Part shown: piece by piece, positions 22,487 to 22,930 of the stretch
Layout of the letters: each line of letters opens with the position of its first letter
Numbering within the stretch: position 1 is the stretch's first letter
NCBI GenBank assembly: GCA_963810535.1
Contig: CAWENW010000009.1
Coordinates: forward strand, 16,363-80,362
DNA: 64,000 nt
Direction: 5' to 3'
Source of the DNA: an uncultured Chloroflexia bacterium
GTDB taxonomy: Bacteria; Chloroflexota; Ktedonobacteria; Ktedonobacterales; JADMIN01
Notes under the pieces: model-generated
Seen by the model: only the letters and a program-made list of their open reading frames with translations
What the model was told of the DNA's origin: nothing
Database searches by the model: none
Made by a program: the position numbers and the translations under genes

Positions 22487-22606
22487 GGTCAAGAGAGACC
22501 TCCCTTTAATACCGGCACCGTGAGGCCGGGAAGGAGAAGTACACCGATGTTGCGTGCCCAGTTGCCCCCACCTTCTCTCCACTTCTGGAGGCGAAGGTAT
22601 TTTTTT
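22487..22606 (+). promoter_or_regulatory. candidate PyrR-dependent transcription attenuator (pyr leader)
   Basis: The hairpin GGUC-AAGAGA-GACC (22487-22500) resembles the PyrR-binding consensus aRUCCAGAGAGGYU. GGGAAGGAGAAG (about 22528-22539) can pair either with CCUCCCUU (about 22499-22506) or with the 5' arm of the terminator. The leader ends in the terminator at 22571-22606. Confidence 0.45.
22571..22606 (+). terminator. intrinsic terminator
   Basis: CCTTC-t-CTCCA-cttc-TGGAG-gc-GAAGG followed by TATTTTTTT (seven T at 22600-22606). Confidence 0.75.
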
Positions 22607-22930
22607 GCGGTGGAAAGGTGACCTCTTGTCAGGTACCCTATCCCCTGGAAGGGGATGGGCTTGTGAGGGAACGATACCCAAGCACGCCTGAACCTGACCA
22701 GACTCAGTCCGAACTCGGCAACGAGTTCTCGGACTACGATACCGGCGAATGTATAGGCACCTGTGGGTGACGTTCCAGCCCACAGCTCTGCGGCTCGTAG
22801 TTAAACCGACAGACAGGGTTCGAGTCCGTGCTACGAGCACCTGAAACCGCTGGATATCTTTGTCGAGGAAAACATCACCTGGACGCCGCAAGGCAACCAG
22901 AGGCCCACACGGGCAGAAACGGTGTGCGCT
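22605..22930 (+). ncRNA. candidate IscB omegaRNA (about 16-nt guide plus about 310-nt scaffold)
   Basis: Non-coding stretch immediately 5' of iscB packed with hairpins: 22640-22656; 22706-22735 (AGTCCGA-ACTCG-GCAA-CGAGT-tc-TCGGACT); 22761-22785 (CTGTGGG/CCCACAG); 22793-22838 (GCTCGTAG/CTACGAGC). Only shadow ORFs cover it. Confidence 0.55.

Follow-up and report, generated by a model that had tools for sequence, protein, structure and literature searches.

A probable IscB omegaRNA with a host-derived guide at the pyrR start codon of an uncultured Chloroflexota bacterium

What is the densely structured stretch that lies directly upstream of an iscB gene in the pyr operon of an uncultured Chloroflexota bacterium, where exactly does it begin and end, and how does the host cope with it? 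A preliminary description of the window (the whole stretch of DNA analysed here, 64,000 nucleotides in length), made by reading its letters, had proposed about 310 nt of structured non-coding sequence at 22605-22930 as a candidate omegaRNA carrying its guide at the 5′ edge. We can now assign window positions 22612 to ~22900, with high confidence, to the omegaRNA of a 1,628-bp non-autonomous ISC element (IS200/IS605 superfamily) in which iscB is the sole gene. The omegaRNA, the nuclease and the type of transposon are all of well-known kinds, while the copy itself is new and comes from an uncultivated lineage of the Chloroflexota, the closest named homologues of which are from Ktedonobacterales.

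The iscB gene extends over 22931..24259 (+) and encodes 442 amino acids from its ATG, a GTG at 22922 offering an alternative start and the TGA stop lying within the TAM. Its product matched the Pfam families RRXRR (PF14239; 1.3e-67) and HNH (PF01844; 4.8e-13), in keeping with the IscB layout of an RRXRR region (PLMP, RuvC-I and bridge helix) and an HNH domain set into a split RuvC domain. Motifs CxxC..VEH..N..CxxC and HWLDA could be read in the translation, and RuvC and HNH motifs are visible; judged from the sequence, neither the iscB ORF nor its nuclease motifs show any damage. Solved IscB structures matched the protein with E-values of 1e-30 to 1e-38, in alignments covering only part of it, and OgeuIscB (7xht) did so at 5.9e-30.

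An Rfam scan of the whole window, i.e. the covariance-model search that had been suggested as a check, located one single copy of HEARO (RF02033) at 22628-22878 (+), on the same strand as iscB and directly upstream of its ATG (22931). This match scored 120.8 bits against a gathering score of 83 (E-value 2e-24) and spanned the entire model (positions 1-211 of 211), and no riboswitch family matched the same positions. HEARO RNA is the IscB omegaRNA (Weinberg 2009; Altae-Tran 2021; Meers 2023). The minimum free energy of 22605-22930 was -135.3 kcal/mol, compared with -111.4 +/- 5.4 kcal/mol for 100 dinucleotide shuffles (z -4.4; 0/100 as low), a degree of structure that is far beyond chance. All four hairpins named in the preliminary description were found in place and folded as it had described, i.e. 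those at 22636-22660 (-16.7 kcal/mol; z -3.0), 22706-22735 (with a GCAA loop; -16.5 kcal/mol; z -4.6), 22761-22785 (-12.1 kcal/mol; z -3.1) and 22793-22838 (-16.6 kcal/mol; z -2.6). Four ORFs overlap the region (22376-23146 on the minus strand, 22554-22691, 22618-22770 and 22828-23109) and none has a Pfam match, in agreement with the earlier view that no credible ORF runs across the structured stretch.

The scaffold of ~270 nt consists of the HEARO core (22628..22878, +), which begins with GUCA, the transposon-encoded end motif, and of one further 3′ hairpin beyond the Rfam model at 22879..22900 (+; CUGG..GCC-GCAA-GGC..CCAG; -11.8 kcal/mol; z -4.0). The sequence that follows, 22901..22930 (+), reads as a linker with the iscB translation-initiation region; it aligned poorly with relatives and contains a small GCCC-ACAC-GGGC hairpin (22903-22914) and a weak Shine-Dalgarno-like motif (GGTG, 6 nt upstream of the ATG). 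Hence, the ~310 nt originally proposed as one structured unit holds for the Rfam core and for the adjoining covarying hairpin, but its last part reads as the initiation region of iscB translation and would only possibly be included in the RNA.

Covariation was evaluated in an alignment of 13 RNAs, the consensus of which comprises 57 pairs in 10 helices. Standard pairs occupied 94.7% of the cells against 31-40% in slid controls, in which the 3′ partners were shifted by 1-3 columns, and 36 of the 57 pairs had changed on both sides yet were kept. The covariation score reached 0.600 (≤ 0.119 in controls), and 0/500 shuffles matched any of the observed measures. Within the HEARO core, 32 pairs distributed over nine helices had changed on both sides, as had 4/4 pairs of helix 10 (22879-22900, 3′ of the Rfam model end) across relatives. 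Meers et al. remarked that RF02033 is without downstream structural elements, and the position of helix 10 beyond the model agrees with this. A HEARO match ending just before iscB was detected in all six full-length relatives from genome contigs, where the scan found relatives at ≤ 62% identity, in six more from metagenome contigs and, likewise, in three near-identical copies. Exact-protein records were found neither for the window IscB, from either of its possible starts, nor for proteins P0001 and P0125. One relative (L015) carries a (TTCCGAA)n tandem repeat between the omegaRNA and the iscB ATG and a (TGATTGA)n repeat after the iscB stop (1160-1278 and 2580-2640), its element end being thereby displaced further downstream.

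The boundary between scaffold and guide came from an alignment of iscB loci, a comparison also suggested beforehand, for which we used the 90%-identity protein cluster of the window IscB (six members from ENA metagenomes) and thus cluster members from related genomes. One member (L010) represents the pyr locus itself, at 99.7% identity to the window, while the element lies upstream of a KaiC-like ATPase gene in L009 and L011 and between a methyltransferase gene and fur in L008. The latter three matched the window by blastn at 95-97% identity, with matches starting at 22627/22628 and ending at 24259, and the only sequence common to the three unrelated contexts extends from 22628 (GTCAGGTACCC...) to 24259 (...CTATGA). 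Given that the contexts diverge up to 22627 and are conserved from 22628, upstream of the hairpin block, the scaffold starts at 22628, which is also position 1 of the HEARO model, and the 16-nt guide is consequently 22612..22627 (+; GGAAAGGTGACCTCTT), host sequence directly 5′ of the scaffold that is unique within the window and holds the pyrR Shine-Dalgarno motif. The guide length was adopted from characterised IscBs, which function with spacers of 14-26 nt, 16 nt being the usual choice. The guide does sit at the 5′ edge and outside the element, as had been expected, but the range first given for it (22605-22620) was ~7 nt too far 5′ and took in the tail of the terminator T-run; the register had been called uncertain at the time. 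The full-length HEARO match, the covariation and the onset of conservation at 22628 in each of three unrelated contexts together bear out the candidate omegaRNA directly 5′ of iscB.

At the other end, each of the three contexts, like the relatives, has an ATGA next to the element (24256..24259 (+) in the window), and the insertion sites point to ATGA as the TAM and as the TnpA target site. In the window, its ATG is the start of pyrR and its TGA the stop of iscB. Since this ATGA is assigned to the host, on the strength of an empty site (see below) and of the N|ATGA target of ISC elements, the whole element corresponds to 22628..24255 (+; 1,628 bp, delimited by blastn and the empty site), inserted directly 5′ of the 4-nt ATGA without target duplication. 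Near-identical hairpins sharing ATCCCC..GGGGATGGG are found on the same strand at both ends, which have no terminal inverted repeats. The omegaRNA-side subterminal hairpin (22636..22659; CCCTATCCCC-TGGAA-GGGGATGGG; -16.7 kcal/mol) doubles as the first internal stem of the RNA and, by analogy with the IS200/IS605 literature, is presumably a TnpA-binding DNA hairpin. Its counterpart on the TAM side (24214..24236; CCCGATCCCC-GAAA-GGGGATGGG; -15.8 kcal/mol) lies inside the iscB CDS, 19 nt from the TAM, and the spacing between hairpin and ATGA is fixed at 18-19 nt in relatives. The omegaRNA had previously been placed over the left end of the transposon; under the TnpA-based convention of Meers et al. 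this designation is reversed, the omegaRNA end being the right end and the TAM abutting the left end. The iscB frame reads across the end hairpin and terminates in the TGA of the ATGA contributed by the host (24214-24259), the transposon end and target site determining the last ~14 residues of IscB and its stop codon. Among relatives, iscB stops up to 31 nt earlier (L001-L003) or overlaps the ATG by one base as TGATGA (L004 and L005).

Closely related metagenome genomes carry the element at three separate loci, two of which share one 201-kb contig, and the 95-97% identity of these copies indicates recent transposition. A crude six-frame motif search detected no Y1 (HUH) tnpA in the window. In L011 (4001-5023) iscB is truncated (340 aa called, with a different N-terminus) and HEARO still scores 121.5 bits; the 201-kb contig with this copy also carries an intact pyr-site copy. 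A cobalamin riboswitch is located next to the KaiC-site insertion (L009 2289-2527; L011 1978-2216 (-)), upstream of divergent FecCD/periplasmic-binding-protein transporter genes.

Elsewhere in the window, 2 kb from the IscB element, a 307-aa ORF at 19717-20640 (-) has only the domains HTH_33, HTH_32, HTH_23 and HTH_29, as in the N-terminal part of an IS630-type transposase, and is probably a decayed second mobile element whose C-terminal half looks out of frame. Two long palindromes were observed at 12404-12458 and 11628-11684, one with a perfect ~25-bp stem (GGAGGGGGGATCCCATAGGAGAGGGA/TCCCTCTCCTATGGGATCCCCCCTCC) and the other a hairpin that resembles a terminator and immediately follows tRNA-Pro; sub-threshold miRNA-family matches on both strands (11627-11684 and 12390-12462) reflect nothing but these palindromes and were discarded as spurious. 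A tandem 9-nt repeat (GCTGTCGTC and variants; 12055-12125) falls within an apparent minus-strand gene for a secreted protein, and a bacterial class A RNase P RNA (38898-39321; 265.6 bits) contains several long insertions relative to the model. A sub-threshold D12-methyl match (23140-23210 (-); 27.8 bits against 57) is antisense inside iscB and was rejected as chance.

The window RNA resembles other HEARO RNAs in matching the full model above the gathering score, in its position upstream of iscB on the same strand, in having its guide 5′ of and outside the element, in its covarying helices and in starting at the transposon end. It differs in length, with 303 nt from the boundary to the ATG compared with a published mean of 242 nt, because of three stem extensions (22661-22683, 22710-22730 and the 3′ hairpin), which are ordinary lineage-specific insertions. 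ISC transposons have 5′-GTCA termini and an N|ATGA target (Kapitonov, Makarova and Koonin 2016, PMC4810608), and the present element shares with those of that paper the GTCA 5′ terminus, insertion 5′ of ATGA with no duplication, imperfect subterminal hairpins at both ends, iscB as the only gene and a length of ~1.6 kb. The window family is, however, new and from uncultivated Chloroflexota and, in its clade, ATGA is nearly always a host start codon, a feature not mentioned in PMC4810608.

The GstIscB element of Geobacillus stearothermophilus, with its TAM TTCAT (Meers et al. 2023), is likewise similar: the guide matches the flank beside the omegaRNA end, the TAM abuts the other end, and TTCAT becomes ATGAA in iscB orientation, resembling the ATGA of the window. 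The end motif (GTCA here) differs from the TAM at 2/4 positions, as Meers et al. describe. In contrast to GstIscB, the window system is known from sequence alone, and the identity of its IscB to characterised proteins is low. The omegaRNA/reRNA of TnpB (IS200/IS605 and IS607) also combines a transposon-end scaffold with a flank-derived guide and serves element retention, but it lies 3′ of its gene, carries the guide at its 3′ end, is transcribed inside the element and has an unrelated fold.

The host sequence around the insertion explains both where the guide comes from and what the TAM is. A pyr-operon promoter-like site was identified at 22453..22482 (+; TTGCCG, 18 nt, TATACT, with an upstream TG) with 9/12 consensus matches, and TGGTATAAT is the aligned counterpart of its extended -10 region in the sister-species loci L028/L029; its promoter function is predicted. 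It precedes the host pyr leader (22498..22606, +), which lies outside the element, is conserved in the sister species and consists of a PyrR-binding-like hairpin followed by an intrinsic terminator (stem 22570-22598 plus AUUUUUUU, U-tract 22599-22606; -15.5 kcal/mol; z -4.0). This terminator, which has a bulged stem, was absent from the output of the terminator scanner and was seen by folding and in the alignment to RF00515. Like PyrR-binding attenuators (RF00515), the region combines a PyrR-binding-like hairpin, a terminator and a U-tract upstream of pyrR-pyrB-pyrC; it differs from them in scoring 29.5 bits, under the gathering score of 54, and in being host sequence in the present context. 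Despite the sub-threshold score, its context, terminator and sister-species conservation make 22498-22606 likely to be the pyr leader. The terminator at 22606 that the preliminary description had used as the upstream landmark of the structured stretch is thus real, stem and U-tract included, but it belongs to the host attenuator and not to the element.

Downstream of the element come pyrR (24256..24882, +; Pfam Pribosyltran, with homologues named PyrR by their sources) and then pyrB and pyrC. An empty orthologous site is present in the sister-species loci L028/L029, the PyrR of which is 81% identical; a search for strains with an identical PyrR protein turned up none whose pyr site is empty. 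In L028/L029 the promoter, leader and terminator are followed by GGAGAGGTGAC-GAGC and then by ATGAGTTC, the start of pyrR, without insertion, the counterpart in the window being GGAAAGGTGAC-CTCTT-[element]-ATGAATTC. The guide region is orthologous to GGAGAGGTGACGAGC, located just before the pyrR ATG in L028/L029. The empty site thereby identifies the guide as the Shine-Dalgarno region of host pyrR and the TAM as the pyrR start codon. The element is inserted exactly between the two, so that pyrR is now parted from its own Shine-Dalgarno motif. The distance from the terminator to this motif is ~60 nt in the sister species and ~10 nt in the window.

From these boundaries a mechanism can be proposed. 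In the published model, an IscB guide is encoded in the flank of the element and transcribed from a start beyond its ends, and the donor joint serves as the target (Meers et al. 2023). At the present locus transcription would likewise have to begin in the host, the guide being external to the element; with the nearest upstream gene pointing away (20813-22372 (-)), guide-bearing transcripts would be expected to start at the pyr promoter-like site, which appears to be their only candidate source (22453-22482). Such transcripts would read through the PyrR-controlled attenuator ending at 22606, and this read-through of the leader terminator would put both the omegaRNA and IscB under pyrimidine control. 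The strong terminator 21 nt upstream would limit guide-bearing transcripts, and those that form would have to lose a leader of ~120 nt by 5′ trimming.

IscB binds the omegaRNA and cuts guide-matching DNA followed by a TAM, whereupon repair restores the element (Meers et al. 2023). By analogy, the RNA of the window would consist of the 16-nt guide copied from the host flank (22612-22627) and the scaffold, to which IscB would bind. On the basis of published IscB work, IscB would then cut targets in which GGAAAGGTGACCTCTT precedes the TAM ATGA, i.e. the empty site left after TnpA excision or an unoccupied allele. Repair by recombination with an occupied copy would bring the element back or spread it. 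A locus that carries the element would be protected because GTCA stands there in place of the TAM. As for the host gene, pyrR is probably still translated by coupling to iscB, whose stop overlaps the pyrR ATG as ATGA; with the pyrR Shine-Dalgarno motif lost to the guide and with this overlap, translational coupling would be the obvious route to pyrR expression.

Other explanations of the structured stretch have to be weighed against that of a guide RNA in a mobile element. The element might have become a fixed, immobile passenger of the pyr operon, its RNA and IscB being encoded but no longer homing or retaining and the RNA serving mainly as a long structured 5′ leader. Presence of the same insertion in the 99.7% identical strain (L010), the single copy in the window without a tnpA-like motif (crude search) and the truncated iscB frame of the related copy L011 would all fit such a passenger. 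We nevertheless consider it unlikely, since near-identical copies (95-97%) at three loci of closely related genomes speak for recent transposition, the iscB ORF and nuclease motifs appear intact and the window RNA scores as well as the RNAs of its relatives.

It could also be argued that the structure matters only as DNA, its hairpins being TnpA recognition elements and the RNA fold incidental, given that the ends of IS200/IS605 elements are recognised as single-stranded DNA hairpins (literature) and that the hairpin at 22636-22659 is nearly identical to that at the other end (24214-24236). This appears highly improbable when ten helices covary over ~270 nt, far beyond one subterminal hairpin, among them long-range helices (alignment columns 90-92/316-318 and 133-142/302-312) that would make no sense for end recognition, and when the family is an experimentally established guide RNA. 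Least credible, and to our mind hardly tenable, is a cis-regulatory leader, i.e. a riboswitch or attenuator of iscB or a part of the host pyr attenuator, in place of a trans-acting guide RNA: the stretch does occupy a 5′ untranslated position straight after a genuine attenuator, but the RNA moves together with iscB to unrelated contexts upstream of fur and of the KaiC-like gene, the sister-species pyr leader is without the structured RNA, and the match is to HEARO and to no riboswitch family. An omegaRNA with a host-derived guide is accordingly the reading that we retain for the locus.

Insertion at a start codon extends beyond pyrR. When each element was removed in silico at eleven independent, well-defined sites of the Chloroflexota IscB clade of the window, with Pfam support for the host genes, the ATG of the TAM was the start of a host gene at 10/11 (window 24256-24259 and the right junctions of L001, L003, L004, L005, L008, L009, L014, L018 and L036). 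Ten copies of one locus (P0012, recorded on 44 contigs) were counted as a single independent site. The docked genes are pyrR, fur and those for a KaiC-like protein, an SH3_3 protein, an FGE-sulfatase, a GH3, a peptidase M20, a peptidase M50 and a GT4 glycosyltransferase, together with one ORF running off its contig. At these start-codon sites the guide corresponds to the ribosome-binding region of the host or to the end of the gene that precedes, and no upstream in-frame start was present at 7/10 sites checked.

The chance expectation for a TAM ATG to coincide with a gene start is 3-12%. Of all 389 ATGA sites in the window, 11.6% begin an ORF of ≥ 150 aa, and for 2.8% the site is the first in-frame start as well; under a crude gene model 12% of intergenic ATGA are gene starts, which gives P ~7e-9 for 10/11; even a generous null of 40% gives P = 7e-4. 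The pattern is established here for the clade of the window only, plasmid relatives from other phyla being mixed: among six annotated plasmid IscB loci, one has its element end 8 nt ahead of a host GTG start, one lies off a gene start, one is maybe at an ATG and the other three gave no clear reading. We therefore put forward only tentatively, and with slightly less than even confidence, that the ISC/IscB elements of this clade dock specifically at host start codons, turning the ribosome-binding site into the guide and using ATG(A) as the TAM, with the TGA ending iscB or lying just beyond it; the host promoter would transcribe the element and the gene would stay translatable by coupling, which at the present locus would place IscB and its guide RNA under the PyrR attenuator. 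Such docking is absent from the ISC paper (PMC4810608) and from a literature search on IscB with translational coupling or initiation codons, and may be undescribed.

The exact boundaries, guide, TAM and ends reported here are what the testing of a compact nuclease or the annotation of genomes needs. The locus is also a clean natural example of the published prediction that the guide of an IscB element needs a host promoter, the only candidate here being that of the pyr operon with its attenuator. Should start-codon docking be borne out in larger samples, it would account for the survival of these elements in compact genomes without the loss of host genes, and the choice of ATGA as TAM would be tied to the grammar of translation starts.
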